Shown here: in pieces, positions 3,545-53,954 of the stretch | How positions within the stretch are numbered: position 1 is the first letter of the stretch | Layout of the letters: every line of letters begins with the position of its first letter | Assembly: GCA_963699165.1 (NCBI GenBank) | Contig: OY969413.1 | Span: 596,562 to 660,561, forward strand | Source: Candidatus Kaiserbacteria bacterium | Lineage (GTDB): Bacteria; Patescibacteriota; Minisyncoccia; Phycocordibacterales; Phycocordibacteraceae | Reading direction: 5' to 3' | DNA length: 64,000 nt | Translations under genes and position numbers: made by a program | Notes under the pieces: model-generated | Told to the model about the DNA's origin: nothing | Database searches by the model: none | What the model saw: only the letters and a program-made list of their open reading frames with translations

Positions 3545-3617
3545 AAATAGTTGGTTTGATATTCTCGTAATCTTCTACGTTCACTTAACGTTCTCTGCAA
3601 TGAAAGTGTGACAGGAG

Positions 3618-11179: not shown

Positions 11180-11367
11180 ATTATTTCCTACTTATGACCT
11201 TGAAGAGTTATTCGAGGATTTCTTCATGTAATCTTAAATCTAGCATTTTTAGGCATATTTTTGAAGCATTAGTTACCAACTCCTAGGACCTCCGAGGCGG
11301 TCTGGACTCACAGCGCTGGTTGCGTCATCCATTGTGGTAGTGCGAATTAGCACATAACCACAATGCA

Positions 11368-12681: not shown

Positions 12682-13727
12682 CCGAGGATATATGCGCATC
12701 AGAAGCAATTTCAGGGGTACGAAGGGCTGGTTGAGCATGTGGGAAAGGACGATACGATTGCGGCATATGCGGAAACCAAAGGAAGTCGACAGACGGGTGA
12801 AGATATTGGGATTCTGGGACATGCACGGGACGGAGGCCACATACGACGCCTTTGGCACCTCGGAGCGCACCTTGTATCGCTGGAAGGAGGAACTCAAAGC
12901 CCACGAGGGCCGCATTGATGCACTTGACCCGAAGAGCACTGCGCCGAAGGCGCGTCGAAGGAGGACTGTTCTGCCCGAGGTCGAGGATTTCATCATCCGC
13001 GAACGACAGGCGCATCCCCGGCTTGGGAAAGCAAAGCTTGCCGTTCTCCTGCGCGAAGAAGGGTACTCCGTGTCGGAGTCATACGTTGGGCGGGTCATTC
13101 TGGATTTGAAGAACCGCGGTCTGCTCCCGCAGCAGAGCCGGCTCTCGTTCCACGCACGTACGGGCAATCACACGGAAACACCGCAGAAACGCCGTACCAA
13201 GCTTCGCCGCACCGGCAAGCGCGGCATGGAGCTCGATACCGTCGTACGCTTCATCGACGGCGTGAAGCGGTACGTCCTCACGGCAGTGGACGTGGAGCGG
13301 AAGTTCGCCTTTGCGGGCGCGTATACGAACCACTCGTCGAGAAGCGCGGACGACTTCCTTCGCCGAGTCATCGAGGTTTGCCCCTTCGATATCGACGAGT
13401 TGCAGACCGACAACGGGAGCGAGTTCGCCAAACACTTCGAGGATGCCTGTGCCGAACTCGGGCTCACGCACTTTCACACCCGCCCCCGCACTCCCAAGAT
13501 GAATGCCCACGTCGAACGATTCAATCGCACCGTGTCCGAGGACTTCATCATGCTGAATCGGGGCCTGCTGCGGGACGATATTCATTCCTTCAATCTGAAG
13601 CTTGTCGACTGGCTGATCTGGTACAACACCAAACGCCCGCACCAGTCGCTCGGCATGGTGTCCCCCTTGCGGTATATTGTGTGTACATTAACCGTCGGGG
13701 ACTGCCAAAAGTACTGGACGCGTACAA
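12646..13727 (+). mobile_element. IS481-family-like insertion sequence, copy 1 (1082 bp)
   Basis: 99 percent identical to 60721..61802; single DDE transposase ORF; imperfect terminal inverted repeats containing TTGGCAGTCC. Confidence 0.75.
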
Positions 13728-13735
13728 CTGCTTGA
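12692..13735 (+). CDS. IS481-family DDE transposase (copy 1)
   Basis: rve integrase core (TDNGSEF, KRPHQSLG); ATG at 12692 matches the copy-2 start; stop codon lies 6 nt beyond the element end. Confidence 0.7.
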   Translation: MRIRSNFRGTKGWLSMWERTIRLRHMRKPKEVDRRVKILGFWDMHGTEATYDAFGTSERTLYRWKEELKAHEGRIDALDPKSTAPKARRRRTVLPEVEDFIIRERQAHPRLGKAKLAVLLREEGYSVSESYVGRVILDLKNRGLLPQQSRLSFHARTGNHTETPQKRRTKLRRTGKRGMELDTVVRFIDGVKRYVLTAVDVERKFAFAGAYTNHSSRSADDFLRRVIEVCPFDIDELQTDNGSEFAKHFEDACAELGLTHFHTRPRTPKMNAHVERFNRTVSEDFIMLNRGLLRDDIHSFNLKLVDWLIWYNTKRPHQSLGMVSPLRYIVCTLTVGDCQKYWTRTTA

Positions 13736-13808
13736 GCAATTGCGTGGCAAACTTATACTTAAAGACAAGGTAATTGCTTTGTGTTAATGCAGCGAGAGAA
13801 AACTTTAT

Positions 13809-16181
13809 TCAAGATACTCTTCTGCCCTGAACACTATTCAAATAGAGAAATCTTGAATTAACCGCCATCTCAGACATTCGCAATGCATATTGATAAGGAA
13901 GCTCCTTAAATCTGGGATTCTCCCAATAGGGCTGATAGGGTTCGAGTTCGGCATTTGCAAGCAGGATAAACGGAATATTCTCTGTTTCCAGAGTTCGGAA
14001 AAGGCCGAGTTCGGCTTCTGTAAATGTATCGGCGGTTTTAGCAAATATCAGATAGCAAGAGAAGCCCTTTGCGACCAATTTATCCCTAGCGACTTTCAAA
14101 TTATCGATATCATTCTGATCAATTTCTCCTCCCTCGTCCTTTGCTTCTCCAATTCCGATCTCAAACTCGTCACCCCTACTGTGCTGAAAGACAACGAAAT
14201 CCGTCTCGAATGCTCGATTGCCGACTTTCAGATTGAGAGCCATTGAGTACAGGAATTCACCGTGATTAAAGACTCTACTGAAAGCAAGAAGAGAAAGGAT
14301 AACGGGAATAGCACCTTCTTGATTATTGTTTTTCGCAAATAGACCAGCTTTTTGAAAGTTCCATATGCCTGGGCTATCTCTAAAAGATTGAACGATGAGT
14401 GGTCGAAGATTCTGCTCTTCAAAACAGAATGGACACGGCCATTTATCATTCTCGAAGTCAGAAAGCAGGACATTGGAAGCGAGGCCACATCCTTCGCACC
14501 GATATTCCTTTCGTTTCCGAAGAATCTTCTCGAGCCAACGTACTTTAGGTCGTAAGATATTTTTCTTAATGAGAAAATTGAAAGCATCACGCGGATTGAG
14601 ATTTTTAGACTCTCTCGACTCAAGAAATAAAGTTTGGAATCTCTTAAACCTCTCTTCGTCCCAAATGATTCTAAGTGCGTCATTCCACTTGATGAAAGTA
14701 TCGGCGGGCAAATCCTTTAGAAACTTTCTAACTCCTGTGATCTTGAAAACACGGCACGCCTCCAGCGGCGTGTATTCCCTCATACCCGTAACTATTTTCG
14801 AAGCAAGTCTCCCAGGTTGGCCAGTCTGTGCCTTGATTTCAGAATACTCCAGAATCTTCTCGATCAATTTCTGATGTGGAAGCGGGTATAGTGTCTCACT
14901 CTCATCGTGCACGTTAATCAAGAGCGCGAACCCTTCTCGCTCGACTCTTAACTTCCACGGATCAAAAACAATTTCTCTGCTGTAGAACTCGTTGAGGCCA
15001 GGTAGGCAAGGAATCTTCAGTGTGTGATCTGAGTAGCCAAAATCTCCGTAAGCATCGATGTTAACGGCTAGGATTTGCTGATCAACATGTCGTCGGTCAG
15101 TCGCCCCGTCGAGAAACTTCTTTTCAGGAAGTGACAAACTGACCTGATACCGATCAAACTGTTTCTCAACAGTGCCGTAACCTCGTTGCCATTCAAAGCA
15201 ATGATAGGCAGGATTCAACCCCCACGCGATGGCTGGAATGTCGGGAGAGAATGTACCAAGGGCTTTTGCTTTCTTCGTAGGGAAAGTCTCCAGGATTTTT
15301 TGAATCTCGTCGTTAGGCAGACTGTGATGAACCCCTATCCAGTCTTGAATTTCTGGATGTGAGTTTGGTATGCCGTCTAAGAACTTGAAGTATTTGGTAA
15401 TGAACGGTCTGAATCTCTCGATCTCGTCGATCGGGCAGAACATGAATGTCTTACCAGAAGCTCGCAAATTCCAAAAGTGCACTAAGTCATCGAAACTATC
15501 CTTCTTCCCGAAGAAGACTCCATACCCACCCCGCTGCCCACCGCCATACCCTTTAAGATCCATACTGGTCAATCCAATCGGGGGAACAGACAGTGCAAAG
15601 GAATCTTTTATCTTTTCGCCGTTCTTTATCTCTATGATCTTCGACCTCAAACCGCGCACGAATGCGTCTTCGAAATCGTCTTTGAGGTTGTAGGACTTTG
15701 GGAAGAAACCAAAATTCAGAGCAAAAACCGCATTTAGTGGATCGGCTTCGTCCCATTTAACTAGGACGCAATTACTTCTGTAGTTTTTCCGCTTGTGCTT
15801 GAAATCTTCCTGCCATAACTTCTCGATAATGTTGAGCACGTCGAGATAGGCAATTTCATTTTTCTTGGTGTGCCATTCTTGATGGAAAATCTGATCCGCG
15901 TAGTGACCTCTATCTCGAAGAAACGGGAACTTGTCTATGAACTCTTTAATCTCCTCAGACTCAGCGATTTTGTAAAAAGTATCGGGCAGGAAAACTCCTA
16001 CAAGATAATCAGCAAGAGAATTATCCTCACCCTTTGGAGCAACTGGAATGATTGGATTATGAATACCGCCCCAAAGCAATGAGTTTATTCCAGTGGCAGT
16101 CACAAGATCCTCAATGTGTCCTTTCCTGACGAGAAAGGCGACCTTGGCGGGCCGGTATTTAATAGAGAAATTTATGGACAT
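13809..16181 (-). CDS. large (790 aa) uncharacterised protein with CxxC...CxxC Zn-ribbon and C-terminal PD-(D/E)xK-like motif
   Basis: start moved to internal Met (ATG 16179-16181); AT/Lys-rich composition; CEGCG...CPFC; GDEFEIGIGEAKD resembles the D...ExK nuclease signature. Confidence 0.55.
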   Translation of the reverse strand: MSINFSIKYRPAKVAFLVRKGHIEDLVTATGINSLLWGGIHNPIIPVAPKGEDNSLADYLVGVFLPDTFYKIAESEEIKEFIDKFPFLRDRGHYADQIFHQEWHTKKNEIAYLDVLNIIEKLWQEDFKHKRKNYRSNCVLVKWDEADPLNAVFALNFGFFPKSYNLKDDFEDAFVRGLRSKIIEIKNGEKIKDSFALSVPPIGLTSMDLKGYGGGQRGGYGVFFGKKDSFDDLVHFWNLRASGKTFMFCPIDEIERFRPFITKYFKFLDGIPNSHPEIQDWIGVHHSLPNDEIQKILETFPTKKAKALGTFSPDIPAIAWGLNPAYHCFEWQRGYGTVEKQFDRYQVSLSLPEKKFLDGATDRRHVDQQILAVNIDAYGDFGYSDHTLKIPCLPGLNEFYSREIVFDPWKLRVEREGFALLINVHDESETLYPLPHQKLIEKILEYSEIKAQTGQPGRLASKIVTGMREYTPLEACRVFKITGVRKFLKDLPADTFIKWNDALRIIWDEERFKRFQTLFLESRESKNLNPRDAFNFLIKKNILRPKVRWLEKILRKRKEYRCEGCGLASNVLLSDFENDKWPCPFCFEEQNLRPLIVQSFRDSPGIWNFQKAGLFAKNNNQEGAIPVILSLLAFSRVFNHGEFLYSMALNLKVGNRAFETDFVVFQHSRGDEFEIGIGEAKDEGGEIDQNDIDNLKVARDKLVAKGFSCYLIFAKTADTFTEAELGLFRTLETENIPFILLANAELEPYQPYWENPRFKELPYQYALRMSEMAVNSRFLYLNSVQGRRVS

Positions 16182-16260
16182 AGATGCATTATCGCAGATA
16201 TAAGATTTCTGCAAAGCTGACCGACAGATTGTTGATACTTCTTGAAATGCTACATAACAG

Positions 16261-16292
16261 AAAAAGCGCCCTATGTATTTTAGGCGCTTTTT
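16261..16292. terminator. bidirectional rho-independent terminator (aaaaagcgcc-ctatgtatttta-ggcgcttttt)
   Basis: GC stem flanked by A5 and T5. Confidence 0.6.
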
Positions 16293-16365
16293 CTGGTGAA
16301 CACCCGGGTCGGTACTGTACTGACCTTGATGGGGGCCGGTACTGGTTCCTGGCGTCACAACCGTG

Positions 16366-16395
16366 TTGCGGGGGCCGGAATCGAACCGGCGTCTG
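16366..16395 (-). ncRNA. tRNA-like 3' fragment (T-arm GCCGG-UUCGAUU-CCGGC plus acceptor 3' strand); no complete tRNA found
   Basis: consensus T-loop on the minus strand; the matching 5' acceptor strand (GCGGGG) lies about 300 nt away at 16663-16668; no tmRNA tag ORF found. Confidence 0.45.
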
Positions 16396-16833
16396 GAGGT
16401 TATGCTTACCACTACAACTTTAATTGCCCAATTTGGTTTGTGGTCTGGACTATGCCTTCATCCGCATGCGTGGATGCCTACCGTCTAGTCTCTACACCTT
16501 CCCGCACGAAAGTTTTTTGAACTTTTTGTGCGGACTTGGCTCGGCGTTGCCGTGCGTCCGAAGACGCTAGGGTTTCACCGAATTTGGCAGGTAATCATAC
16601 GCGCAATTGCTCGCGCGCACGCCCGAATAATTCAAGCCTCCCGAGGTACCTCTCCTCTACCCCGCTAAATAAAAGTATACACTCAATAACCTTGTTGGCA
16701 ATCGCATGCGAAAAGCAAAAAATAATTCAAGATGCGCGGCGCGGGAAGCTGATTTTCTGAATCGTACTTTTCGGTACGTTGAAGAAAATCAGCGGGATCC
16801 GTAACAAAGCAGGTTGGATTTTTTTCTTCTCGC

Positions 16834-17405: not shown

Positions 17406-18833
17406 CTACACGGACTTTTCAACTGCACGGGCGCCCGCAAACAAAACATCTTCGCCTCCGTGGGGCGCGGTCAAATGAATGCCGATCGGCAATTGCTTCC
17501 CTTCCCGTTCAACGCGGCCCATCGGCACGGAGACGGCTGGCACGCCGGTCAGATTTGCGGTAACGGTGAAGATGTCTTCGAGATACATCGAAACTGGGTC
17601 GCTTTTCTCGCCGAACTTGAACGCGGGCGAAAGCGTTGTCGGAAATGCGATGATGTCCGCTTTTTTGAAAGCATCAGCGTATTCGCGGCGAAGCACGACG
17701 CGCGCCGCTTCCGCTTTGCGGTAATACGCGTCGATGTAGCCGGAGGAAAGCACAAACGTGCCGAGCAGGATGCGGCGAAGCGTTTCCTCCCCGAATCCTT
17801 CGGTGCGCGAAAGAACATAATCATCAAGCAATGTCTTCCCGCGTTTCGCAAGACCGTAGCGCATGCCGTCGAGACGCGCAAGGTTTGTAGAGACCTCGGC
17901 GGGCATAATGACGTAATAAGCCGCAAGCGCATACGAACTGGTTGGCAATTCAATGTCGACAATGGTGTGCCCGTCTTTTTTGAGTTTTTCGAGCGTTGCA
18001 TTAAACGCCGCGAGCACATCCGGATTTACTTCTTTACCGAGAAAATGCCGCGGAATGCCGATGCGCAATTTCGCCGGTGCCTTTTGTGCCGGATACAATC
18101 CTTCCGGAATCGTCGTCGAATCCATCGCGTCCAGGCCGCGAATCGCATCAAAAAGGATTCGCGCATCCTCGACCGTTTTTGCGAGCGGACCGATTTGGTC
18201 GAGCGACGAACCCATTGCGATGAGACCGTGGCGGGAAACGGAACCGTAGGTCGGCTTCATGCCGACGAGGCCGGTGAGAGCCGCGGGCTGGCGGATGGAG
18301 CCGCCGGTATCGGAGCCGAGCGCGGCAATGACAAAATGTGCGGCGACGGCGCACGCGGAACCGCCCGAGGAGCCGCCGGGCACGCGGCTCGTGTCGTGCG
18401 GGTTCCGCGTCTTCCCAAATGCGGAATGTTCCGTCGAGGAACCCATCGCGAACTCGTCCATGTTGGAGCGGCCGAGGAAAAGCGCGTCCGCGGCTTTCAA
18501 TTTCTGCACGACCGTTGCATCGTACGTGGCGCGATAATTCTCGAGCATTTTTGAGCCCGCGCTTACCAACTTTCCGTCTATCAAAATGTTGTCCTTGAGC
18601 GCAAGCGGAATCCCGCACAAAAGCGGCGCCTTTTCGCCTTCCGTGTCGATGCGTTTTTGCGCCTCCGCGATAGCCGCGGCGTCGCGCGGAAAAATTTCCA
18701 GAAATGCGTGCAGCTCCGGATTGCGCTTTTGCGCTTCTTCGTAGCACGCATCAAAGAGTTGTGCGACGGTAAGTTCCCGCGCGCGGAGAGCGCGGGCTGC
18801 CTGCACGATGGTCATTTCATTCGGCCGATTCAT
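17406..18833 (-). CDS. gatA: Glu-tRNA(Gln) amidotransferase subunit A
   Basis: amidase signature GGSSGGSA and full-length similarity pattern. Confidence 0.9.
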   Translation of the reverse strand: MNRPNEMTIVQAARALRARELTVAQLFDACYEEAQKRNPELHAFLEIFPRDAAAIAEAQKRIDTEGEKAPLLCGIPLALKDNILIDGKLVSAGSKMLENYRATYDATVVQKLKAADALFLGRSNMDEFAMGSSTEHSAFGKTRNPHDTSRVPGGSSGGSACAVAAHFVIAALGSDTGGSIRQPAALTGLVGMKPTYGSVSRHGLIAMGSSLDQIGPLAKTVEDARILFDAIRGLDAMDSTTIPEGLYPAQKAPAKLRIGIPRHFLGKEVNPDVLAAFNATLEKLKKDGHTIVDIELPTSSYALAAYYVIMPAEVSTNLARLDGMRYGLAKRGKTLLDDYVLSRTEGFGEETLRRILLGTFVLSSGYIDAYYRKAEAARVVLRREYADAFKKADIIAFPTTLSPAFKFGEKSDPVSMYLEDIFTVTANLTGVPAVSVPMGRVEREGKQLPIGIHLTAPHGGEDVLFAGARAVEKSV

Positions 18834-25353: not shown

Positions 25354-26413
25354 CGGCACCCAAACCCCTCAATTCGAACGACGGTTTTTTGCGCTCCTCT
25401 GAGCGCGTTGTTTCTTTTCCGCAGCATACGCCTCATCTGGCGTGAGTGAACCGAGCACATCCATGAAGCGGCGATTCATCTTTGCTTCGAGTTTCTGCAC
25501 AAATCTTTTTGAATACTTTGAAATATCCGAGCTTTTCGGGATGTACCGCCGCAAGTCCTTGTTCAGATTCTCGATTGATGGCTTCTCCCATGGCGCATGC
25601 ACATGACAGAAATATATCTTCACCCCAAGCACCTTCTCTAGCCGTTTGTGTTCGAGAAAGAGAATATCGTTGTCGAATGTGATGGTCTGCATCTCGGGAT
25701 ACCGCTTTTTCATTCTGCGAAGCGCTCGCTCCACGTTTCGCACTGACACTGGCAGGATCCGCTCCAGCAGGTTTTTGCGCACCCTGCGATCCCGCAGACC
25801 AAGAATGATGCCTTGACCGCTCTTGCCCGACACGATGAAGTCGCCCTCCATGTGACCCAATCCCCATCGCTTGTTGATTTTGCTCGGTCGTTTGTCGATC
25901 AGGCGCTTGTCGGCAATGTGTGGTTTCGATGGCCGAGAGCGTCGCCTCTTCTTGAATACCTTTGCTCGATGCGACTCGATCCGTCTGCCATACGGGCTCT
26001 TGATATATCGGCGTATAGCCGAGGATGAAGCATATCCGATATCCTTCTCGATCCGCTTCAATCGAAGTGAGATGTTTTCGGGCGACTGATCGTCGAAGAG
26101 ATGCGCCTCGATGAACTTCCGGAGCTTCGGGTCGAGAGCAATCATCTTGCCGACCGCTCGGCTGTATTTCCTTCGTACGTATGAAATGTGATGCGCATAT
26201 GCAGCATCATACGGCCGTCCCTTCCTCTTCTTTTGCGTCTCGTACCATATGACACTCTTCGGTCGGTCGAGTGCATCTCCGACATCTTGCAAAGAGTATC
26301 CCTTCGCTAACAGTATCTGTATTTCGTCTCGTTCGGACTTTGTGAAGTGCGCACCGCCGGAGGTTTTTTCATTCGCTCAATGTATCAAACGTTCGAATTC
26401 AAAAGACCAGTCG
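25354..26413 (-). mobile_element. IS30-family insertion sequence inserted in a pilin gene, 3-bp target duplication
   Basis: about 27-bp imperfect terminal IRs with AATTCGAACG core; CGT/ACG duplicated at 25351-25353 and 26414-26416; DDE transposase inside. Confidence 0.7.
25369..26372 (-). pseudogene. IS30-family transposase, N-terminal HTH out of frame (homopolymer frameshift)
   Basis: DDE motifs GHMEGDF, TFDNDILF, APWEKPSIENLNKDLRRY. ATG at 26370-26372 gives MKKPPAV...stop, while the HTH (HFTKSERDEIQILLAKGYSL) is in the +1 frame; an extra A in the A6 run would restore it. Confidence 0.65.
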
Positions 26414-36240: not shown

Positions 36241-36327
36241 GGAGACGTGGCTGAGTGGTCGAAAGCACCTCGCTGCTAATGAGGCAGGGGAGAAATCCTC
36301 TCGTGGGTTCAAATCCCACCGTCTCCG
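36241..36327 (+). tRNA. tRNA-Ser (anticodon GCU), class II long variable arm
   Basis: acceptor GGAGACG/CGTCTCC, 3-bp D stem, anticodon loop CUGCUAA, T-loop GGGTTCAAATCCCAC; CCA not encoded. Confidence 0.85.
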
Positions 36328-36328
36328 C

Positions 36329-36371
36329 AAAAATAACGAGCAAGACGCGAAGCGTCTTGCTCGTTATTTTT
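36329..36371 (+). terminator. rho-independent terminator
   Basis: aaaaataacgagcaagacgc-gaa-gcgtcttgctcgttatttttg perfect 20-bp stem. Confidence 0.8.
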
Positions 36372-36689
36372 GCGGTGAGATATTAGACTTTGCTCGAACC
36401 CACTTCGCACGCGCGGAGCGCGTGGTGGCTTGAAACTGCCTCGTACGCTCCGATTGCATGGGGAAACGAACCGATGCGCCTCGGACACGCTCGCGGACTC
36501 GCGTGTGCAAAAATCAAAAAATTTCCTTGCATTTTTCTCGCGCCTCCTCCCCCCACCCCTCCACCGCGAAGCGGAAAAAGAAATGGAAAGGAAATTTTTG
36601 GTTTTGCTTCGCCGTTATCATAAATCCAGTTTATCACAATAATCTAAAATGGTATATTCCACTTTCGACTATATTATGTTAATATCTAT

Positions 36690-36908
36690 ATGTCGAAGAA
36701 ATACCAAGCAAAATATCAAAAACTTACCGCAAAACTCCGTTCCGCTCGCCAAGAGGCAGGTTTAACGCAAGTAGAAGCAGGAAAACTATTGAAGAAACCT
36801 CAAGCGTATATTTCCAAGATAGAGCGAGGCGAGCGCGGAGTTGATGCGATAGAATTAGCAGAGTTTGCGAAGGTCTACAAAAAAGACATTAACCATTTTA
36901 TAAAATAA
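36690..36908 (+). CDS. XRE-family HTH transcriptional regulator
   Basis: LTQVEAGKLLKKPQAYISKIERGER Cro/C1-type HTH; AT-rich. Confidence 0.7.
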   Translation: MSKKYQAKYQKLTAKLRSARQEAGLTQVEAGKLLKKPQAYISKIERGERGVDAIELAEFAKVYKKDINHFIK

Positions 36909-36912
36909 CAAT

Positions 36913-37752
36913 ATGGAAAACGAACCAAAAATGAATAAATTTAAAAACTACAAAAGTTTAGTTTTGATATTAGTAATTATCGCCGTGATAGTTGGTTTGT
37001 ATTTGCACTACGCACAGCGAAACACGCCAACTAAAGCAACAAGCACTCAAACGACTTCAAGCGCGGAGCATACGGCTAGTTATATTTCTAGTGTAATAAG
37101 CGCGATTGCAAGTTATCGACAATCTACCCAAGAAGCAACTCTTGTGGCGAAAGAATATACTGACAAAGGCGTGGACATAAATAATCGGAGCGTTAAAACC
37201 GCCGAAGAACTTGCTGTGTTGATGAAAGTTGTAAATGATTTCAAAAATGGAAACTCGTATTTGGCACCATATCTTAATGATAGTAATTCTCTAATTAGTG
37301 TTTCTGCAAAGGCATTAGATCAGTCCGCAACTTCTATTCTCCAACCCAACGAGGATATGCTCGCCGCTTTCCAAACCGGAGACACGCAGAAAGAACAAAT
37401 CGCACTTGCATCCGTGACTGCCGCTCAAGACTCGGGGACAAACGACATGAACAATGTTATGCAGATAATTAGGGAGGGATTGATAATGGGACTTGGAGAA
37501 AACGATAATTTGCCGACAAGTGGAACTATACACACATCTCTTTCAGTGGAACAAAGAAATAATTTGTTGGCACAAATAAAAAGTGATTTCCCAAATGGAG
37601 TAAATAATTATTCTAACGATATTTATTCTTTGATGATCTATGGAATTCAGGCGGTCTTAGTGTCAGATACCTTTGAGCAATTTCGCAGTTTAGCAGGCAC
37701 AATGACCACAAACGGCGCGCAAGCGTTGCCGTTTGTGGTTTCAGAAAAATAA
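36913..37752 (+). CDS. hypothetical membrane-anchored protein
   Basis: one N-terminal TM helix; AT-rich; no known motif. Confidence 0.4.
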   Translation: MENEPKMNKFKNYKSLVLILVIIAVIVGLYLHYAQRNTPTKATSTQTTSSAEHTASYISSVISAIASYRQSTQEATLVAKEYTDKGVDINNRSVKTAEELAVLMKVVNDFKNGNSYLAPYLNDSNSLISVSAKALDQSATSILQPNEDMLAAFQTGDTQKEQIALASVTAAQDSGTNDMNNVMQIIREGLIMGLGENDNLPTSGTIHTSLSVEQRNNLLAQIKSDFPNGVNNYSNDIYSLMIYGIQAVLVSDTFEQFRSLAGTMTTNGAQALPFVVSEK

Positions 37753-38256
37753 ATGAGCTTATCAGATTTTATTTTACTAGCTACTGGAGTATTTATTGCT
37801 TGGCAAGCGTGGGAAACACGCCAGTTAGCGAAGCTAACAAGAATTAAAGACCAACCGCTTTTGGAAGTTGAATTTCAAAATAATGGGGCAAAAGTCCAAT
37901 TAAAAAATATCGGACAATCTCCCGCATATTCGCCATCAATTAGTTCGATTGAAATTGCAAGCAACGAGCATTTAGATTTTGACCCTTTGCACACTTCTCG
38001 CTTACCAATACAGCTCGGCGAAAGCCGAGAAGTGTGGATGCATCATCAGCGTGTGGATGAGAATTCGATTGGTGGTTTTGTTGAAAGTGCGCCAGTTTTG
38101 AAGAATTTTCTGCTAAACAAAACTACTCCCACAAAAATTACTCTAAAGTATTTTGATAAAGACGGCGTTAAACTTTGTCGCGATTTATATATAAAAGTTA
38201 GTGGTAATAAAATAAGTGGAAACCAGCAAATATATACAACCACGACTTGTGAGTAG
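37753..38256 (+). CDS. hypothetical membrane-anchored protein
   Basis: abuts previous ORF (TAA ATG); AT-rich. Confidence 0.4.
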   Translation: MSLSDFILLATGVFIAWQAWETRQLAKLTRIKDQPLLEVEFQNNGAKVQLKNIGQSPAYSPSISSIEIASNEHLDFDPLHTSRLPIQLGESREVWMHHQRVDENSIGGFVESAPVLKNFLLNKTTPTKITLKYFDKDGVKLCRDLYIKVSGNKISGNQQIYTTTTCE

Positions 38257-40015: not shown

Positions 40016-41656
<1,641 letters not shown>

Positions 41657-41965
41657 TTAGTTTTCGATAAGTAGAATCTCGGACTCGGAGAGCACGTAGT
41701 ACTCTTCCCCGTCGAGTTTGATGGGTTCGTCCCACGGCTTTTTGAAAAATACTTTGTCGCCCGCTTTGACTTCAAGCGGAATGCGCTCTCCTTTGTCGCT
41801 TCGGCGTCCCGCGCCGACGGCAACGACTTCGCCCGCAAATAGTTTCTCTTTATTGACCGTCTCGGGAATGATGATGCCCGATGCGAGTTTCTTCTCGCCG
41901 CCCGAGTCCGACGGTCGGACTACCACGCGGTCTCCAAGCGGCTTCAGTGAAAGCTTTTTTGCCAT
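41657..41965 (-). CDS. groES: co-chaperonin GroES
   Basis: 102 aa, LKPLGDRVVV motif. Confidence 0.95.
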   Translation of the reverse strand: MAKKLSLKPLGDRVVVRPSDSGGEKKLASGIIIPETVNKEKLFAGEVVAVGAGRRSDKGERIPLEVKAGDKVFFKKPWDEPIKLDGEEYYVLSESEILLIEN

Positions 41966-42557
41966 ATTCTATATATAAATTAATAAACGCCCTCGTAACG
42001 GGATTATAGGCAACGCGTCCGTTCTTCGCAACTGGGGATGGGTTGCCAATGTCCATTACTTGTGGCAAAATGAATTCCGGACACGTGAAGTCCAGAAAGG
42101 ACGGTTAATCTTGATTGAAAACAACACGTTTCAACGTACCCATCCATTTCCGGTCGCCGCACCGGAAATAGCAACGTTCTTTTTACTACTGCCAGTGCTC
42201 GGATATGCAAGTTCTCCGGCATCCTGCGTCTACGAGAAATCCGATAAAGACGGCTGTGTTTTCATCGGAGTCACCCGTAAGGGTGACTAATCAGATTTCG
42301 ACGTGCTTCTCGTTTCTCAAAATGGAGATGCGGACGCGGCGGACGCGGCTCTCGAACAAGCGTGCGAAGAGCTTGAGCGTGCGGGCGTCGACACCGGATG
42401 GCTCGGTGGCGACTAAACCATGACGGCGCGACGGATTCAAACCCGCCGCGCCGCTCACTTTTTATAGCCGCCATCGGCTGGGAAATTGCTTTTCTATAAA
42501 ATTTGTTGTAGTATATTTCCGGATGTCCCACCTATCGTGGGACTGGAAAGGTTTGTT

Positions 42558-42839
42558 ATGTCGAAAATCGAATCAACGAAGACCCGCACGTTCTTCGTTC
42601 CTCCGTGGATTCTGCTCCTACAGTCCAACCAGGACTGGTGGAAAAGAGACCTGAGCGGAGTACGTGCAACCACCCAAGAATACTGCATCGCGCCGGGAGT
42701 GAGGTTTTTGGGGACGATTCGTCTCGACATTCACCTGCTCTTCGGAACAGTCAAGGTGACGGCATCGTCACCCTTTGGAGTCGACAACTCGTCCGAGTTG
42801 TTCGACCGGGCGTGGTCGCACCTGTTCCCTCAGGTGTGA
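42558..42839 (+). CDS. hypothetical protein
   Basis: ATG preceded by aaagg and a 7-bp-arm palindrome gtcccacctatcgtgggac; followed by terminator. Confidence 0.35.
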   Translation: MSKIESTKTRTFFVPPWILLLQSNQDWWKRDLSGVRATTQEYCIAPGVRFLGTIRLDIHLLFGTVKVTASSPFGVDNSSELFDRAWSHLFPQV

Positions 42840-42851
42840 GGAAGGCACATC

Positions 42852-42888
42852 GGGGCGACAGCTTTGGCTGTCGCCCCGCTCTGTTTTT
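42852..42888 (+). terminator. rho-independent terminator
   Basis: ggggcgacagc-tttg-gctgtcgcccc followed by T run. Confidence 0.75.
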
Positions 42889-42941
42889 ATCCCAGCGACC
42901 CTCGGCTTGCGCGGCCATGCTCGCCCGTGCTATGCTGACCG

Positions 42942-42957
42942 GCAAGATGGAGGCACT
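42942..42957 (+). repeat. attL core (duplicate of secG start, ATGGAGGCACT)
   Basis: identical 16-mer to 46253..46268; encodes a 9-codon secG remnant. Confidence 0.65.
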
Positions 42958-43810
42958 AGTTGCGCTCCCCTCCTAAAGAACGAGACGAGACAGATTGTCC
43001 GCCGATTCCAGCCTTTAAAACCATGGGTTTTACTGGCTTTTGACTTTTTTGTGCAGTTTCTCTTGTATGTGCTTCCAACCATTGGTTGCCCACGGGTTGC
43101 CCAAAACCCTCAGAAAGTGCCCACGTTGGGTTAAGAAGGTCAATTGTCGTACGAAGTGTCGATGGTGCGAGATGAGCGTATCTCATGGTCATTTCAATGG
43201 ACGAGTGGCCCATCAGTTTCTGAACGGCCGGTACAGGGGCTCCAAGCATCACTAAGTGAGATGCGAACGTATGCCTTAGAGTATGCCAACCGATGTGACG
43301 AAGTCCGGCTTTTTGACAGAGGTTCGTCAATTTTCTGCCAAGACGATAGTGGTCGAAGTTCTTACCGTTGGCATCCAAGAACACGAATCCAGTGTCCTTT
43401 TTCATTCTGAAGAGCATCTCGTATAGGTCGGAGGTCATGTCTATGTGCCGCTCGCGGTTGCTTTTTGGCGATCCGAGCGCTTTTGCATAGTGGGACCAAG
43501 AATGTCGCACGATAATAAGCCTGTTGTGCCAGTCAATCGATGCCCATTGGAGACCTATGAGTTCTCCTAACCGCATTCCCGTCTTGAGACCGGTCAGAAT
43601 CAACTCTCGGATAACCCCGTCAGAGTGGAAGAGCAGCAGTTCGCTCTCGTCAAACGAAAGGTAGTCTGTAGAGGGCGGTGGACATTTGAGCCACGTAATT
43701 TCGGGTGGTGCCCCATCAAGCTGCAGCCATTTGTATGCTGTCGACACACAATGATTCAGGACTACCACGTGCTCATTGACTGTTCGCCTTGAGAGACCCC
43801 GTTTAAGCAA
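42956..43810 (-). CDS. tyrosine-type site-specific recombinase/integrase
   Basis: catalytic motifs R...HTLRHTFAS...MGHSSIEMTMRYAHL. Confidence 0.8.
   Translation of the reverse strand: MLKRGLSRRTVNEHVVVLNHCVSTAYKWLQLDGAPPEITWLKCPPPSTDYLSFDESELLLFHSDGVIRELILTGLKTGMRLGELIGLQWASIDWHNRLIIVRHSWSHYAKALGSPKSNRERHIDMTSDLYEMLFRMKKDTGFVFLDANGKNFDHYRLGRKLTNLCQKAGLRHIGWHTLRHTFASHLVMLGAPVPAVQKLMGHSSIEMTMRYAHLAPSTLRTTIDLLNPTWALSEGFGQPVGNQWLEAHTRETAQKSQKPVKPMVLKAGIGGQSVSSRSLGGERN
43084..43106 (+). repeat. tandem 9-mer GGTTGCCCA x2 (putative integrase arm-type site)
   Basis: same 23-mer (one mismatch) at 46087..46109 near the other element end. Confidence 0.55.
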
Positions 43811-43855
43811 GTGGACTTTGTATCTTTCAATGTCACTAACGGTTATGCTAAAAAA

Positions 43856-45163
43856 TCATTTAACCTCCCCCAACATCGGTATCGCTAATCGTCTTCGATT
43901 CGTTTCCCCCTTGAACAAGGTTGTGACGCGTTTCGCCACGTCTCCTCGTTCGCCCAAATGGGCTGCGTGCGTCATTGCGCCAAAACTAGAACCGAGAAAG
44001 ACGGTGTGCTTCCCATACTTCTCAGATACCTCATCGATGTTTTCAAATACGTGCTTAATAGCTTCCGACTTTTGCACTGACCCAAAGAGATCGAGTTGTG
44101 TGCCTCCTGTTTGCGAGAGTCCCATGAGGGTAATGCCGGTGGCACGGTAGAGGGTTCCCTTCTTAAATATTTTCGGAAAGTATCGGGATACTTCTTTCAG
44201 AATGTCTTGAGGGATGTTAGTCGGGTACGCGAGTTTGATTTCGTAGCCGTGGTACTTGAACTCCTGTGTTTTCAGAAAAAAGAAAATCACGGGGCTCGCG
44301 AGGTTCCACCTGCGCGCCTTGATGCATGCATTCTCGATGTTTTTTGAAAGCTGTGCAAACACAAACGCAGGGTTCGTTGATGGAGGGGTAAACGTTTTTG
44401 TTTTGCTGATGGATTGATATCCCTTCCTGCCCAACGTATCGAGCTCATTCGCCACAATGCCATTCAATTCCTGCCACGTTTCGAAGTACGGCTTTGCCAC
44501 GCGTTCTTTCACCCACCCCTCTGGCTTCTTTGCAAAGTCGAGCGCCGTTTGTATGCCGAACTTGTTTAGAAGTGCTGACGTGTTTGGACCGATTCCCCAC
44601 ACCGAACCAACGGGAGTCTTCCCTAAAAAGATTCCACTGTCTCGAAGCGGAATCATCGTGAGGCCAGATGGCTTCTTCCACTTCGAGCCAATCTTTGCGA
44701 GCGTCTTTGTGGCTGATACACCAATTGAAAAGGTCATTCCGAGTTCGGTATCAAGTTCGTGCTTCATCTTTTGAGCCATTTGCTCGTAGTTCATATGGAG
44801 ACGACTACGCAGACCAGTGAGATCAGCAAAACATTCATCAATGCTGTACTCCTCAACCGCGGGCGTGTACCTGCGCACGATCGCATACATGCGCTCTGAG
44901 AAGATGCTGTATGTTTCATAGTCGGACGGAAGAATGATGGCGTTGGGACATACTTTGCGAACTTCGCTTAAACGCATGCCACGCTTAACTCCAAGCGCTT
45001 TCGCTTCATAGGACGCTGCAGACACGATGCCACGTTCTTTTCCTGTAATGACTGGCTTCCCGCGAAGCGAAGGATTCTTTGCTACTTCGCACGAAGCAAA
45101 GAAGGAGTCTCCATCCACGTGCAGGATGGCTCGCGGATACGACCCTAGTGAGCCCCACGCCAT
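43856..45163 (-). CDS. Y-family DNA polymerase (DinB/UmuC-like)
   Basis: ILHVDGDSFFASCE N-terminal motif, SIDECF catalytic region, little-finger domain. Confidence 0.85.
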   Translation of the reverse strand: MAWGSLGSYPRAILHVDGDSFFASCEVAKNPSLRGKPVITGKERGIVSAASYEAKALGVKRGMRLSEVRKVCPNAIILPSDYETYSIFSERMYAIVRRYTPAVEEYSIDECFADLTGLRSRLHMNYEQMAQKMKHELDTELGMTFSIGVSATKTLAKIGSKWKKPSGLTMIPLRDSGIFLGKTPVGSVWGIGPNTSALLNKFGIQTALDFAKKPEGWVKERVAKPYFETWQELNGIVANELDTLGRKGYQSISKTKTFTPPSTNPAFVFAQLSKNIENACIKARRWNLASPVIFFFLKTQEFKYHGYEIKLAYPTNIPQDILKEVSRYFPKIFKKGTLYRATGITLMGLSQTGGTQLDLFGSVQKSEAIKHVFENIDEVSEKYGKHTVFLGSSFGAMTHAAHLGERGDVAKRVTTLFKGETNRRRLAIPMLGEVK

Positions 45164-45164
45164 A

Positions 45165-45734
45165 CTAGTATTTGCGCACGACTGCAGTTACCACCGCTTC
45201 TATGCTCAGCGTGTTCTCCGGATAGATTGGTTTGTACTTTGCGTTTGCTGGTTCAAGGAAATACCCTCGTGGTCCTTTGCGCAGATACTTGATCGTGAAC
45301 TCGCCGTCGACCGAGGCGATGACGATTTGCCCTTCTTTGTATGTTTGCTTGCGCTCGACAATCACCATATCGCCGTCTTGAATTCCAGCATCAATCATTG
45401 AATCCCCTTTCACACGGAGGGTGTAGCTCGACTCTTTGTTTGGAGTGAGGTATTCGTCAAAATTCATTACGTCGAGCAATTCCTCTTCCGCTGCTGAAGG
45501 AAATCCTGCTTCGACCAATCCCAATACACGTGTACCACCGATGAGGGCATTCGTCGGAGAGAGTTTGCCTCGTTTGTCCTTCTTTACGGACCCGTCATCC
45601 ACAAGTTTGCTGATAAGCTTGTACACCGCGTTCTTTGAGCGGAAGCCGGTGAGCTTCATAAGCTCCTCGTATCCAGGCATACGGCGATGACGAGCATAGA
45701 ATCCGGCAAGCTTGCTTCGATATGTTTCGTACAT
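45165..45734 (-). CDS. lexA: LexA-like repressor (winged-helix + S24 peptidase)
   Basis: VKGDSMIDAGIQDGDMVIVERKQ Ser-Lys dyad region; N-terminal HTH; own SOS box upstream. Confidence 0.8.
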   Translation of the reverse strand: MYETYRSKLAGFYARHRRMPGYEELMKLTGFRSKNAVYKLISKLVDDGSVKKDKRGKLSPTNALIGGTRVLGLVEAGFPSAAEEELLDVMNFDEYLTPNKESSYTLRVKGDSMIDAGIQDGDMVIVERKQTYKEGQIVIASVDGEFTIKYLRKGPRGYFLEPANAKYKPIYPENTLSIEAVVTAVVRKY

Positions 45735-45749
45735 GCCGAGAGTATAGGT

Positions 45750-45761
45750 GAACTATGGTTC
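45750..45761 (-). promoter_or_regulatory. Cheo-type SOS box GAAC-N4-GTTC overlapping lexA promoter
   Basis: tGAACTATGGTTCa 16 nt upstream of lexA ATG, next to TATACT -10-like hexamer. Confidence 0.65.
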
Positions 45762-46086
45762 ACCAGTCAAGTGGCGTCGGGTTTTGGCAAGTCGCTGCTG
45801 AAACTTACTCTGGATTATGACACTACTGAACTTGTAGATTTTTGAAGGCTACATCCATATAAAGTTTAGTCACTTTGGAAATCATCAACTTAATTAAGTC
45901 AGGAATCAATGCTTCCGTAATCGCAAAGGAAGTAACCACATAACAAAGAGCCAGAAAACTATTCCGGCCAATTGTAACCATTAAGGGAACAGCACAAACA
46001 CACTGTTCATCAGTGTGTTATTCCTTCCATCACTTTCGCCTGTACTGCTCTGGTTAGTAATACTGCGTGCAACAGATTCGAAAATC

Positions 46087-46109
46087 GGTTGCCCACCGGT
46101 TGCCCAAAA
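46087..46109 (+). repeat. tandem 9-mer GGTTGCCCA x2 (putative arm-type site, right end)
   Basis: matches 43084..43106. Confidence 0.55.
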
Positions 46110-46252
46110 AGTGATATTTGGTGATTAAGATTGATAGTCGGTGAGTACGATTGGTAATTTTGGTTATTCTGATAAATCCTTGTTTTATGCGGTTGAATTG
46201 CAATATATTCAGCTATCTTGCGCCTATTGGCCTCCCCGTGGTATCATCCCTA

Positions 46253-46268
46253 GCAAGATGGAGGCACT
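46253..46268 (+). repeat. attR core overlapping the secG start codon
   Basis: identical to 42942..42957. Confidence 0.65.
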
Positions 46269-46497
46269 CGTATCGGCACTGCCGTATGCGGAAATCATCC
46301 TCTCAATACTCCTCATCGTCGGCATCGTGCTCCAGCAGCGCGGTGCGACCCTCGGCGGAGCATTCGGAGGCGATAATTTCGCGTCAACGTTTTACAAGCG
46401 CAGAGGCGCCGAAAAATTCCTATTTAATGCGACCATAGTCATTGCAGTTCTCCTTATGCTCGCGGCAATAGCAAACTTCCTTCTCGCGGGGTCATGA
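46258..46497 (+). CDS. secG: preprotein translocase subunit SecG
   Basis: GGAFGG ... RRGAEKFL signature, two TM helices; ATG at 46258 inside att repeat. Confidence 0.8.
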   Translation: MEALVSALPYAEIILSILLIVGIVLQQRGATLGGAFGGDNFASTFYKRRGAEKFLFNATIVIAVLLMLAAIANFLLAGS

Positions 46498-46616
46498 ACG
46501 CCACGGAGGACAGTGCGACTCTAGCCCGAAGCGCCCAAAGCGAACGCTCCCGGGTATTGCGGAATGTTTTCGGACAGTCGCGGTCTCTTGGCCTCTCCGC
46601 GAAAATCGGAGGCCGC

Positions 46617-52379: not shown

Positions 52380-52940
52380 TTAATGTCCTTGATACGTGCT
52401 AATCAATTTCTCATCGGCTAAAACAAAATAGATATCAACATCATACGCGGTGGATTCTAACCATCGCTTAATTGCCGTCAATGCTACTTCCGCAGATTCC
52501 CTATGTGGCCAATTGTAAGCGCCAGTCCCGAGCGCGGGGAATGCAATACTTTTTGCCTTAAGCTCTCGCGCAAGTTCCAGAGAATTTACATAACAGGCCG
52601 CCAAAAGTTCTTCTCTCGGAACGGGATATGGTTTAAGAGTATAGAATCTGGGTGCGGTGGTATGGATGATATATCGTGCTTTTAGATTAAAACCGGAGGT
52701 ATGCACAGCTTCTCCCGTCGGACATTTACCGATTGCACGCTTGGCTAGCTCAATAGGAGTTCCAATTGTTTTACAAATTAGCCTATCAACGCCACCACCC
52801 GTTATCAACTCTTCATTTACAGGATTTACTATAATATCCGTTTCCATTTCCAGAATGCTCCCACAGACGGCTTTAATCATTTTGAGAAACGGGGGACAGC
52901 CACCATTATTTTCTTGATATAAAATCCCATTTATTTTCAT
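52380..52940 (-). CDS. macro-domain protein (ADP-ribose binding/hydrolase)
   Basis: DIIVNPVN ... GGGVD ... AFPALGTG; AT-rich. Confidence 0.75.
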   Translation of the reverse strand: MKINGILYQENNGGCPPFLKMIKAVCGSILEMETDIIVNPVNEELITGGGVDRLICKTIGTPIELAKRAIGKCPTGEAVHTSGFNLKARYIIHTTAPRFYTLKPYPVPREELLAACYVNSLELARELKAKSIAFPALGTGAYNWPHRESAEVALTAIKRWLESTAYDVDIYFVLADEKLISTYQGH

Positions 52941-53439
52941 AGTCCTCTACCGTGGGAGTTTGTACAAAGTACTGTTCACCCCTGAGACCCATTCTAAAAA
53001 TGCGTTGGTCGGTATTGTATTTTACTTTCTTCTTTTCTTTTTTCTTCTCATCAATCCAAAATTGATGCTCCTCTCGAATGTACTTTGCAACAATTTCACT
53101 AGGAACAACATAGAACTTGAAAAAACCAGTATCTTTAGAAATATTTACAAAGCAATAAAAGAGCGATTCGCTATAAATAGTTTCGTGCTTCTTACTCATC
53201 ATCCAGTCGCTTACAAACTTTCCGTGAATCTTAGAGACGGATGGCTCTTTCTTATCATTTTTGAAATTTGTCTTGACTTCGAGTTGCCATAGTTTGCCGT
53301 TATCCGGATCTAAAACAAGAATATCAACGCTTTTGGTATTGCCGAGCGTCAGGTTTGCATCGTACCCCCGCAGAGCTAATTGGGAAAGGACAGCAAACTC
53401 TCCCGCAATCGAAACTGAATTTGTATTAATGGATTTCAT
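52906..53439 (-). CDS. PD-(D/E)xK nuclease-fold protein, hypothetical
   Basis: GEFAV...VDILVLD...LWQLEVKT (E, D, ExK spacing); 35-nt overlap with macro gene; Lys-rich. Confidence 0.5.
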   Translation of the reverse strand: MKSINTNSVSIAGEFAVLSQLALRGYDANLTLGNTKSVDILVLDPDNGKLWQLEVKTNFKNDKKEPSVSKIHGKFVSDWMMSKKHETIYSESLFYCFVNISKDTGFFKFYVVPSEIVAKYIREEHQFWIDEKKKEKKKVKYNTDQRIFRMGLRGEQYFVQTPTVEDYENKWDFISRK

Positions 53440-53462
53440 TTTGCTGACCGTCCGAGACGATG

Positions 53463-53954
53463 TTAATCACAATCAACAATCCCAATAAATTTGAAACCTC
53501 TGAGAAGTTTATCCGCACGTTCCTTTTCTTCAAGATCTCGTTTAATTTGTGCTGGCGATTTTTTCCTATTTCCGACCTCGGCCACTGAGTCGGGTGATGC
53601 TGTCCCCCAAAAGATTTTGTCTAACCTTTCTCCACTCTTTAAATCTAGAATTTCCCACACGATTTCATTTTCCCAACCTTCTTCAGATTCCACTCGATAT
53701 TTGTACCGCCGAGCAATGAGACAATCCTTGGTTCGTGTGTCGAACTTTAATCCGAAGCCCTCAATCTCAACATCAGTAAAATCCTCGGATAGAGATTCTT
53801 CTTTTTTCTTACGCCAAATTTCAAAGTCGCTACGTGCAGTGATTCTATAGAGTAATTCTATTTGAGTATTATTGAAAAGCGACCATTCTTTCCAAAAGAA
53901 CAAAATCAATACAGTCAGTAATAACACCAGGAGAATTATAATAAGTATTTCCAT
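53463..53954 (-). CDS. membrane-anchored hypothetical protein
   Basis: N-terminal TM helix; AT-rich; first gene of the three-gene cassette. Confidence 0.4.
   Translation of the reverse strand: MEILIIILLVLLLTVLILFFWKEWSLFNNTQIELLYRITARSDFEIWRKKKEESLSEDFTDVEIEGFGLKFDTRTKDCLIARRYKYRVESEEGWENEIVWEILDLKSGERLDKIFWGTASPDSVAEVGNRKKSPAQIKRDLEEKERADKLLRGFKFIGIVDCD

Follow-up and report, generated by a model that had tools for sequence, protein, structure and literature searches.

A probable deletion remnant of an integrative element at the secG start codon of a Candidatus Kaiserbacteria bacterium, with a lexA-polymerase operon as cargo

Introduction

Elements built around a lambda-type tyrosine integrase include temperate phages, integrative mobilizable elements and Prim-Pol-bearing elements such as pSAM2. 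Here we describe a 3.3-kb block (42942-46268) that lies between groES and secG in a 64,000-nt stretch of DNA from a Candidatus Kaiserbacteria bacterium, hereafter called the window. A first-pass annotation had read this block as a self-sufficient integrative element carrying a LexA-like repressor and a Y-family polymerase. Our analysis favors, with a probability of about 0.75, the reading that the block is a deletion remnant of a family of integrative elements that occupy the secG site in Minisyncoccia, with a foreign lexA-polymerase operon as its cargo. This family resembles lambda-type elements in its tyrosine integrase, its HTH_17 excisionase, the short core that attP and attB have in common and the repeated arm sites flanking that core, and it would likewise restore the displaced part of its target gene. 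It differs from them in its target, the 5' end of a protein gene instead of the 3' end of a tRNA gene or protein gene, in that a promoter would be restored, and in having the integrase-side arm sites within the coding sequence of the integrase.

The anatomy of the window copy fits the definition of a cis-mobilizable element (CIME) (PMC6323972). As in streptococcal CIMEs, attL and attR are intact together with their arm sites, a functional recombination module is missing along with genes for transfer and replication, and the copy appears to descend from larger integrative elements with the same target. Unlike CIMEs, it keeps a large in-frame fragment of the integrase, its host belongs to the candidate phyla radiation (CPR), and its target is the start of secG. 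By analogy, it could at most be mobilized by accretion; no helper element was identified for it, and the 64 kb hold no other integrase of the family.

Mobile mutagenesis operons of the umuDC type include rumAB, mucAB and the operon of Tn5252. A streptococcal umuC cassette is regulated by HdiR, and HdiR/UmuDAb systems have been described (PMC8565304). As in the mobile mutagenesis operons, the window has a self-cleaving protein of the S24 type directly upstream of a Y-family polymerase on a mobile backbone, and control by DNA damage would be expected by analogy. Unlike the umuDC-type and HdiR/UmuDAb systems, its S24 protein appears to be a full LexA-type protein, with an N-terminal DNA-binding region and its own operator, rather than a bare UmuD; unlike the umuDC-type operons, its polymerase scores better against Pol IV than UmuC models, and the operon is orthologous to a chromosomal SOS module of CPR bacteria. 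The operator is a LexA box of the Gram-positive type, and the alignment with LexA runs over nearly the full length. The SOS system of the Patescibacteria is reportedly the subject of a study by Sanchez-Osuna, Barbe and Erill from 2017 (Environ Microbiol 19:3465), cited in PMC8565304 and PMC7739468. The window would resemble this system in having a LexA with a GAAC-N4-GTTC-type operator in its own promoter, and departs from it in that the intact lexA lies inside a mobile-element remnant and the native copy is truncated. Among the papers listed by a literature search, none dealt with secG as a site of integration, and a search on mobile elements of CPR bacteria returned no titles on this element family.

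Results

An insertion at the start codon of secG

The ends of the block, the neighboring arm and spacer, and the target gene are listed here.

42942..42957, no strand: attL copy of the repeat, containing the orphaned secG ATG (42947) and codons 1-4
46253..46268, no strand: attR copy of the repeat, containing the live secG start codon (46258)
46080..46252, plus strand: right (secG-side) element arm, homologous to the right arms of related elements
45780..46079, no strand: AT-rich spacer (GC ~0.38), inside which the right-hand junction of the lexA-polymerase block falls
46258..46497, plus strand: secG, the target gene, 79 amino acids (PF03840, 3.5e-13; TIGR00810, above cutoff)

An exact 16-bp direct repeat containing the secG start codon, GCAAGATGGAGGCACT, is present at both ends just as the first-pass annotation had it, and a repeat tool extended it to 37 nt at 78% identity (42924-42960 and 46235-46271). 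By our own arithmetic, ~0.003 exact 16-mer pairs are expected by chance in a 5-kb region and ~0.5 in the 64-kb window. Repeat length is thus weak evidence, and its position and its conservation in relatives decide. When the att sites were read side by side, the core common to the relatives was ATGGAGGCAYTCGT, which corresponds to secG codons 1-5. The core of the window repeat recurs at the empty site of locus L007, at both attL and attR of the elements at L098, L100 and L005/L010, and in the attP form at L013 (these loci are described below). Together, the cores of the relatives and the empty sites confirm, at the level of sequence comparison, that the block was inserted by a site-specific integrative element at the secG start codon and that true att sites bound it.

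The right arm was 78 to 81% identical over ~160 nt to the right arms of L100, L098 and L013, and 80% identical over 91 nt to that of L005. GC content is 0.48 across the block versus 0.55 to 0.60 in its immediate flanks. Between the repeats lie three genes, all on the minus strand: a tyrosine-recombinase open reading frame (ORF), a Y-family polymerase gene and a gene for an S24 LexA-like protein. In BLAST comparisons, the AT-rich spacer matched neither other lexA loci nor other elements. An Rfam scan of 41600-46600 returned nothing above chance; a sub-threshold CsrC match on a terminator hairpin was taken as chance. On the 3' side, secG is followed by a gene for a solute-binding protein and then by that for RNase J.

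The same site in related genomes is empty or holds other cargo

Relatives were found by a scan with the downstream solute-binding protein, and the neighborhoods of six integrase homologs were examined. Five of the six showed the same slot, in the order RNase J, solute-binding protein, secG, element, int, groES and groEL. At least five other Minisyncoccia loci carry elements of 7.7 to 13 kb at the groES/secG site, with full-length integrases. Lengths were taken from core positions for L005/L010, L098 and L100, and from gene coordinates for the ERZ1426847 contig.

L005/L010: element of 13.1 kb with a type III restriction-modification system, an S49 peptidase, Prim-Pol and HTH_17
L098: element of 7.7 kb with a Schlafen-like protein
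L100: element of 7.9 kb with AAA_25
ERZ1426847 contig: element of ~9 kb with Prim-Pol-AAA_25 and an ArdC-like protein
L102: element of more than 11 kb (cut off by the end of the contig, short of secG) with a methylase, a helicase-type restriction subunit, AAA_25 and HTH_17

A gene with a Pfam-recognized HTH_17 domain (PF12728) adjoins int in three loci (L010, L013 and L102). At L013, a homolog of the right arm, the core and the 3' end of the integrase gene are contiguous, which is the attP arrangement; this locus would be either an unintegrated copy or the junction between two elements integrated in tandem. The attP-type junction (11024-11377) lies inside a contig of 186,880 bp (ENA ERZ25039471 contig_29272). 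In the 21 kb of this contig that were examined, we saw several genes resembling type IV secretion coupling proteins, together with DUF932, PDDEXK, UDG and radical SAM genes. Either a large conjugative replicon or a tandem array might account for this contig.

Two loci showed an empty site. At L008, groES and secG are 258 nt apart. At L007, they are separated by 1.65 kb that holds an ORF of unknown function and a toxin-antitoxin pair (likely HicAB-type by our own reading of the translations) and no integrase. Furthermore, two independent contigs from metagenome-assembled genomes (MAGs), L004 and L006, have their first base 22 and 5 nt ahead of the secG ATG, where the att core has its left edge. 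Such starts would be consistent with a fork in the assembly where an insertion is polymorphic, being present and absent within a population. Conservation of one int-dinB-lexA block across relatives, with no empty site, had been named as the pattern that would speak against a mobile element; the block was found in none of them, and they showed empty sites (L007 and L008) and other cargo. Judged from these comparisons, the block is of mobile origin.

The integrase lacks its N-terminal region

The first-pass annotation had placed a tyrosine integrase against the left repeat. The gene is indeed there, with its catalytic residues, in a truncated form.

42956..43810, minus strand: tyrosine integrase ORF, with PF00589 (3.4e-30) as its sole Pfam domain
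42956..43855, minus strand: open frame of the integrase remnant, from about residue 108 of the full-length protein onward, with the catalytic domain intact

Homology searching gave roughly 25 integrases of at least 69% identity. Full-length homologs of 368 to 430 amino acids carry PF14659 and PF00589 and are 73 to 81% identical to the remnant; in one of them, P0017, PF14659 spans residues 63-118 and PF00589 residues 178-335. The window integrase therefore misses ~107 residues at its N-terminal end, which leaves it with little of the SAM-like domain (PF14659) and none of the region in front of it. In an alignment with the full-length homologs, R80, K116, H176, R179, H202 and Y211 fell in invariant columns, and all six are kept in the remnant. 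The 298 codons are open, and the ratio of nonsynonymous to synonymous substitution rates (dN/dS) against the full-length genes was 0.08 to 0.11, compared with 0.07 to 0.15 among the full-length genes themselves. Pairwise dN/dS thus detected no relaxed selection on the remnant; either the truncation is recent on the dN/dS scale or the fragment is still constrained.

The boundary between the polymerase and the integrase translates as ...IPMLGEVK*FFSITVSDIERYKVHLLKRGL, with matching frames on the two sides of the polymerase TGA, and homology to integrases begins 2 to 3 codons past this TGA (..ISKITVSDVEKYKAHLLK..; the alignment starts at FSITVSDIERYK). A polymerase-integrase fusion by read-through of the TGA was considered and rejected, as a one-in-three frame match is no evidence; TGA is a stop codon here because secG itself ends in TGA. 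For the remnant we found neither a start codon in a normal context nor a promoter of its own. Between 42958 and 46252 there is no excisionase ORF, and the block has no replication or transfer gene. With these absences, with the truncated integrase and with relatives of 7.7 to 13 kb that do have an excisionase and replication genes, the proposal of a self-sufficient 3.3-kb element did not hold, and the window copy is, on its gene content, a non-autonomous deletion remnant with intact ends.

The closest integrases in annotated phages and plasmids were only 25 to 28% identical. Among IMG/VR viral contigs there were only four distant matches (26 to 46% identity over the best segment), and these gave no sign of a catalogued prophage.

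Tandem repeats in both arms

The motif GGTTGCCCA occurs exactly four times in the 64 kb (43084, 43095, 46087 and 46098), as one tandem pair in each arm.

43084..43103, plus strand: integrase-side pair, GGTTGCCCA-CG-GGTTGCCCA, 137 nt from the core ATG
46087..46106, plus strand: secG-side pair, GGTTGCCCA-CC-GGTTGCCCA, 171 nt upstream of the secG ATG

Tandem 9-mers resembling arm-type sites had been noticed before; they are present and conserved in position, with the correction that the copies of each pair are 2 nt apart (an 11-bp period) and not 1 nt. Every element has a tandem pair in both arms, 170 to 181 nt upstream of the core ATG on the secG side and 125 to 137 nt downstream of it on the integrase side. 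In the SPRUCE_297 element (L005/L010), GATTGCCCA serves as the first repeat in both arms, which looks like co-variation within one element. We infer that the pairs are arm-type sites bound by the N-terminal region of the integrase.

The secG-side pair is non-coding. The integrase-side pair lies within the C-terminal coding sequence of the integrase, where it encodes an invariant peptide, FGQPVGN, and it doubles as these codons at the same position in L010, L098, L100, L101, L102 and L013. The same bases thus look to be under constraint at the level of both DNA and protein.

A putative look-alike promoter for secG

Promoter-like sequences stand at both copies of the repeat, as had been described.

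42851..42888, plus strand: intrinsic terminator of the upstream hypothetical gene, an inverted repeat with a 12-pair stem (10 GC pairs) and a T run
42907..42936, plus strand: putative native secG promoter left at attL, TTGCGC (42907-12), N18, TATGCT (42931-36), 10 nt to the ATG at 42947
46218..46247, plus strand: putative element-borne replacement promoter of secG, TTGCGC (46218-23), N18, TATCAT (46242-47), 10 nt to the ATG at 46258

The native promoter region of secG begins at this terminator. The att sites that we read have in common a layout of TTGCnn, ~18 nt, a TAnnnT-like hexamer, 9 to 11 nt and ATG. It occurs in native upstream sequences (attL of the window, the empty L007 site and attL of L010, L098, L100 and L102) and in element-borne sequences (attR of the window, attR of L005, L098 and L100, and the L013 attP). 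A scan with consensus promoters left both secG hexamer pairs below threshold as too weak, so promoter function is deduced from the conserved layout and the position. On that ground, the element side of attR probably supplies a look-alike promoter for secG, in agreement with the earlier suggestion that the element donates one. The distance from hexamer to ATG is short, suggesting that the secG mRNA is leaderless or nearly so.

At attL, the orphaned native promoter and ATG open a 9-codon ORF (MEALVALPS; 42947-42976). This promoter points antisense into the integrase remnant, the polymerase and lexA, and the element has no strong plus-strand terminator downstream of it.

The cargo is a lexA-polymerase operon with an SOS box

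43856..45163, minus strand: Y-family (DinB-like) translesion DNA polymerase, 435 amino acids (PF00817 [IMS], 7.8e-48; PF11799 [IMS_C], 3.5e-13)
45165..45734, minus strand: LexA-like S24 repressor, 189 amino acids (PF00717, 1.3e-27), whose stop lies 1 nt from the polymerase ATG
45741..45770, minus strand: predicted lexA promoter, -35 TTGACT (45765-70) and -10 TATACT (45741-46)

These domain matches bore out the earlier assignment of the cargo as an operon of a LexA-like repressor and a Y-family polymerase. The catalytic motifs HVDGDSFF and SIDECFADL can be read in the polymerase translation. Against NCBIfam, the best scores came from Pol IV models, at ~220 bits (cutoffs 256 to 399), and UmuC scored 165 bits (cutoff 431). 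The S24 protein scored 105.5 bits against TIGR00498 lexA (cutoff 110.95) over profile positions 25-201 of 203, and Pfam LexA_DNA_bind did not match it at E<=0.01. From its own residue 19-20 onward, it aligns to residues 26-197 of E. coli LexA; it also aligns to UmuD. The motifs LVEAGFPS (with the AG site), KGDSMIDAG and GEFTIKYL align with UmuD and LexA structures and provide the Ala-Gly site and Ser/Lys dyad of a self-cleaving S24 domain. Among solved structures, UmuD (6e-20) is a slightly better match to the C-terminal domain than LexA (1.8e-17). With its 189 amino acids and its alignment to LexA, the protein is not a UmuD-type protein bare of a DNA-binding domain; it appears to be LexA-type, with an N-terminal DNA-binding region.

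An SOS operator, GTGAAC-N4-GTTCAC (45748-45763), sits between the -35 and the -10 of lexA, in line with the Cheo-type box previously placed over the operon's own promoter. A search of the window for further GAAC-N4-GTTC boxes returned only this one, as GAACTATGGTTC at 45750-45761; with 1.6 expected in 64 kb, the count is meaningless, and the argument rests on position and conservation. The -10 is only 6 nt from the ATG, so the lexA mRNA is probably leaderless.

A metagenome scan with the polymerase yielded 80 loci at 52 to 73% identity. In most of them lexA lies directly upstream of the polymerase, and the surrounding contexts vary. At some loci the neighbors are housekeeping genes that we take, from our own reading of the translations, to be those for SmpB, IF-3, L27, L9 and FtsH. 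The box (with at most one mismatch) was present in 47 of 56 lexA upstream regions of CPR loci, in most loci between a TTGACA-like -35 and a TATACT-like -10, with the flank variants GTGAAC..GTTCAC and TAGAAC..GTTCTA. None of the 80 loci had an integrase of the secG-site family, L025 giving only a weak, 29% integrase-like match, and secG was near the polymerase at a single one, ~4 kb away. By its contexts, the lexA-polymerase operon is to all appearances an ordinary chromosomal SOS module across CPR bacteria.

The operon is not always compact: lexA and polymerase are 0.3 to 1 kb apart in several other CPR loci, and L026, L030 and L046 share an ORF family (~160 amino acids in L026) between the two genes.

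Foreign composition and a second polymerase locus

GC content at third codon positions (GC3) was 0.56 for both the element polymerase and lexA and 0.52 for the integrase remnant, compared with 0.68 to 0.71 for GroEL, the solute-binding protein and RNase J. The operon thus matches the integrase remnant and not the host genes, which argues that it is foreign. The first-pass annotation had advised looking for a second lexA; a protein search found an intact polymerase paralogue, next to which lies a truncated lexA. This second polymerase, P0122, lies at locus L103 (6.6 kb; JBAPNL010000033.1), in the assembly GCA_049279115.1 that also holds the window sequence. Both polymerases are recorded on a 993,452-bp contig.

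The gene order at L103 is IS3-type transposase, PMT glycosyltransferase, small ORF, 43-codon ORF, polymerase, DUF6629 and ACT-domain gene. The L103 polymerase is intact, with a host-like GC3 of 0.727. It is 91.5% identical to the element polymerase in protein and 81.6% in DNA, with a synonymous divergence (dS) of 1.37 and a dN/dS of 0.037, and the two were each other's nearest relatives among the top matches. The 43-codon ORF corresponds to the final 41 codons of lexA (residues 149-189), at 95% protein identity, and no SOS box lies upstream of this fragment. In our reading, the L103 copy would be the native one, the element copy would have diverged in a related lower-GC lineage and then been imported, and the host lexA would have been broken. 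A recent intragenomic duplication of the polymerase was considered and rejected on the dS of 1.37 and the GC3 difference of 0.17. In the window and the L103 contig, which were searched, the element-borne LexA is the only intact copy found.

In place of the 5' part of lexA, L103 has at 3540-3802 two direct repeats of ~45 nt (91% identical) and inverted repeats of 20 to 27 nt; this repeat-rich stretch is unrelated to lexA, and no copy of it was found in the window or the other loci examined.

Agreement between assemblies

Where checked, the window, the MAG contig of GCA_049279115.1 and two contigs that Logan assembled from SRR27973122 are identical at every base over the two junctions. One Logan contig (L109) runs from groES to the 3' end of the polymerase gene and the other (L002) from its 5' end to beyond secG. 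The Logan assembly breaks inside the polymerase gene, which fits two paralogues confusing the assembler.

Discussion

We propose that a full-length tyrosine integrase recombined the attP core with the first five codons of secG, which would have separated secG from its own promoter. Since the secG-side arm of the element brings a predicted promoter of the same layout and a start codon, secG would have stayed intact and would presumably still be expressed. In relatives, the HTH_17 excisionase would direct excision. Here, a single deletion or an equivalent rearrangement would have removed the DNA from just past the polymerase stop to about integrase codon 107, taking the excisionase gene, replication genes and the N-terminal region of the integrase and leaving both att sites and the four arm sites. 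With the integrase N-terminus and the excisionase lost, the remnant should be unable to excise by itself; at most, a related element supplying both proteins in trans could move it, as with cis-mobilizable elements.

The lexA-polymerase operon would have come from a related lower-GC lineage. Its LexA would bind the operator in its own promoter and thereby regulate itself, and upon DNA damage, LexA would be stimulated by RecA to cleave itself at the Ala-Gly site, freeing lexA, the polymerase and, by read-through, also the integrase remnant from repression. The native lexA of the host would be down to its last 41 codons, with its operator lost and the native polymerase intact. As the element LexA is the only intact copy found, selection would have reason to keep the stump. 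We advance more tentatively, as a scenario that we would rate somewhat below even odds, that the mobile element replaced the master SOS repressor of its host: the native lexA would have been destroyed, the working LexA and polymerase would sit in a stump locked in place by loss of the integrase N-terminus, and this stump would represent an undescribed CPR family that targets the secG start codon and brings along the promoter that it displaces.

Several observations count against a deletion remnant with foreign cargo. None of the six related elements examined carries lexA and a polymerase, which leaves this cargo without a counterpart in a full-length element. Exact-protein look-ups for SecG and the upstream 93-amino-acid protein returned only occupied copies, both assemblies that hold the species being occupied, and neither an empty site nor an excised circle from the same species was found. 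The left junction falls within a few nucleotides of the polymerase stop, which is tidy for a random deletion and would fit a separate insertion as well. The frame of the remnant is intact and its dN/dS is not raised, pointing to a recent truncation or to a fragment that still functions. The search for further copies covered the window and one other contig, so a further lexA or a full-length integrase could exist elsewhere, and the truncated native lexA lies on a single short MAG contig flanked by insertion sequences, where an assembly error is possible.

An alternative suggestion is that the lexA-polymerase operon was never cargo of the element and entered a resident element or remnant separately, by illegitimate recombination that destroyed the 5' end of the integrase gene. 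The junction exactly at the polymerase stop, the 300 bp on the other side that match nothing, the absence of the operon from related elements and its otherwise chromosomal occurrence would all agree with such an entry. It would, however, require that low-GC donors contributed twice, independently, to the same 3 kb; the operon has the GC3 of the integrase remnant (0.56 and 0.52) and not that of the host, and joint arrival is simplest. We therefore regard separate entry as unlikely. Still less probable, in our view, is that the block is an active 3.3-kb element that is excised and reintegrated at secG by its own integrase. Its att cores and four arm sites are intact, its catalytic residues are all present, and the frame is open with a dN/dS of 0.08 to 0.11, as that idea would have it; against it, the integrase has lost ~107 N-terminal residues, including most of PF14659, and has no normal start codon context, promoter or excisionase of its own, and the other members of the family measure 7.7 to 13 kb with integrases of 368 to 430 amino acids.

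Artefacts of assembly or binning also deserve a word, since the source is a MAG, Logan contigs of SRR27973122 are interrupted within the polymerase gene, and the second locus lies on a contig of 6.6 kb that terminates in copies of insertion sequences, so that the block or the second polymerase locus could be a chimera of two co-occurring strains. This is very improbable given the identity of the window, the MAG contig and two Logan contigs across both junctions, the record of both polymerases on a contig of one and the same length (993,452 bp) and the host-like GC3 of the second locus. Finally, exact 16-mer pairs are not rare over 64 kb (the ~0.5 expected by our arithmetic), and chance repeats around an ancient, fixed gene arrangement might be imagined; the comparative data refute this, with empty sites, other cargo at the same site, an attP form, conserved arms and a foreign composition, and we find it scarcely credible. 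The deletion remnant with foreign cargo is thus the reading that we retain.

Mobile elements of CPR bacteria and Patescibacteria are poorly described, and this locus exposes a family with attB, attP, arm sites and variable cargo that recurs at one chromosomal site across several genomes. For organisms that lack any genetic tool, its integrase and att pair offer a candidate to be tried as one. The family also offers a clear example of 5'-end integration in a gene of an essential pathway that would be harmless because a look-alike promoter is carried along. In addition, the locus points to a possible route by which related lineages exchange LexA and a mutagenic polymerase, here with the incoming set intact and the resident repressor broken. 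No general principle is changed, each piece having a precedent in better-studied bacteria.

Additional features of the window

Other parts of the window show signs of mobility. A low-GC island at 8675-16412 (GC down to 0.36) encodes an 834-amino-acid DNA methylase, an 867-amino-acid protein with no Pfam match and, at 11368-12681, a large serine recombinase with Resolvase, Recombinase and Zn_ribbon_recom domains, and the island probably represents a further mobile element. Downstream of a tRNA-Ser(gct) gene (36241-36328), a low-GC stretch (0.38 to 0.40) extends to 38256 with an HTH_31 gene and two ORFs that have no Pfam match, and 36241-38256 could be a second integrated island.

A 307-amino-acid ORF on the minus strand (25369-26292) has no Pfam match and resembles an IS30-type transposase by eye. 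Its end recurs at L103 (6496-6633) at 97.7% identity, at the contig end, and a pair of IS3-type transposase ORFs in L103 (31-1097) is ~51% identical in translation to the window at 7524-8534. Assembly contigs seem to break at insertion sequences.

A further low-GC patch (0.37 to 0.42) at 52380-53954 holds an ORF of unknown function, a weak PD-(D/E)XK match and a Macro-domain gene. ARAGORN predicted a 93-nt tRNA-SeC (anticodon tca) at 18221-18313.

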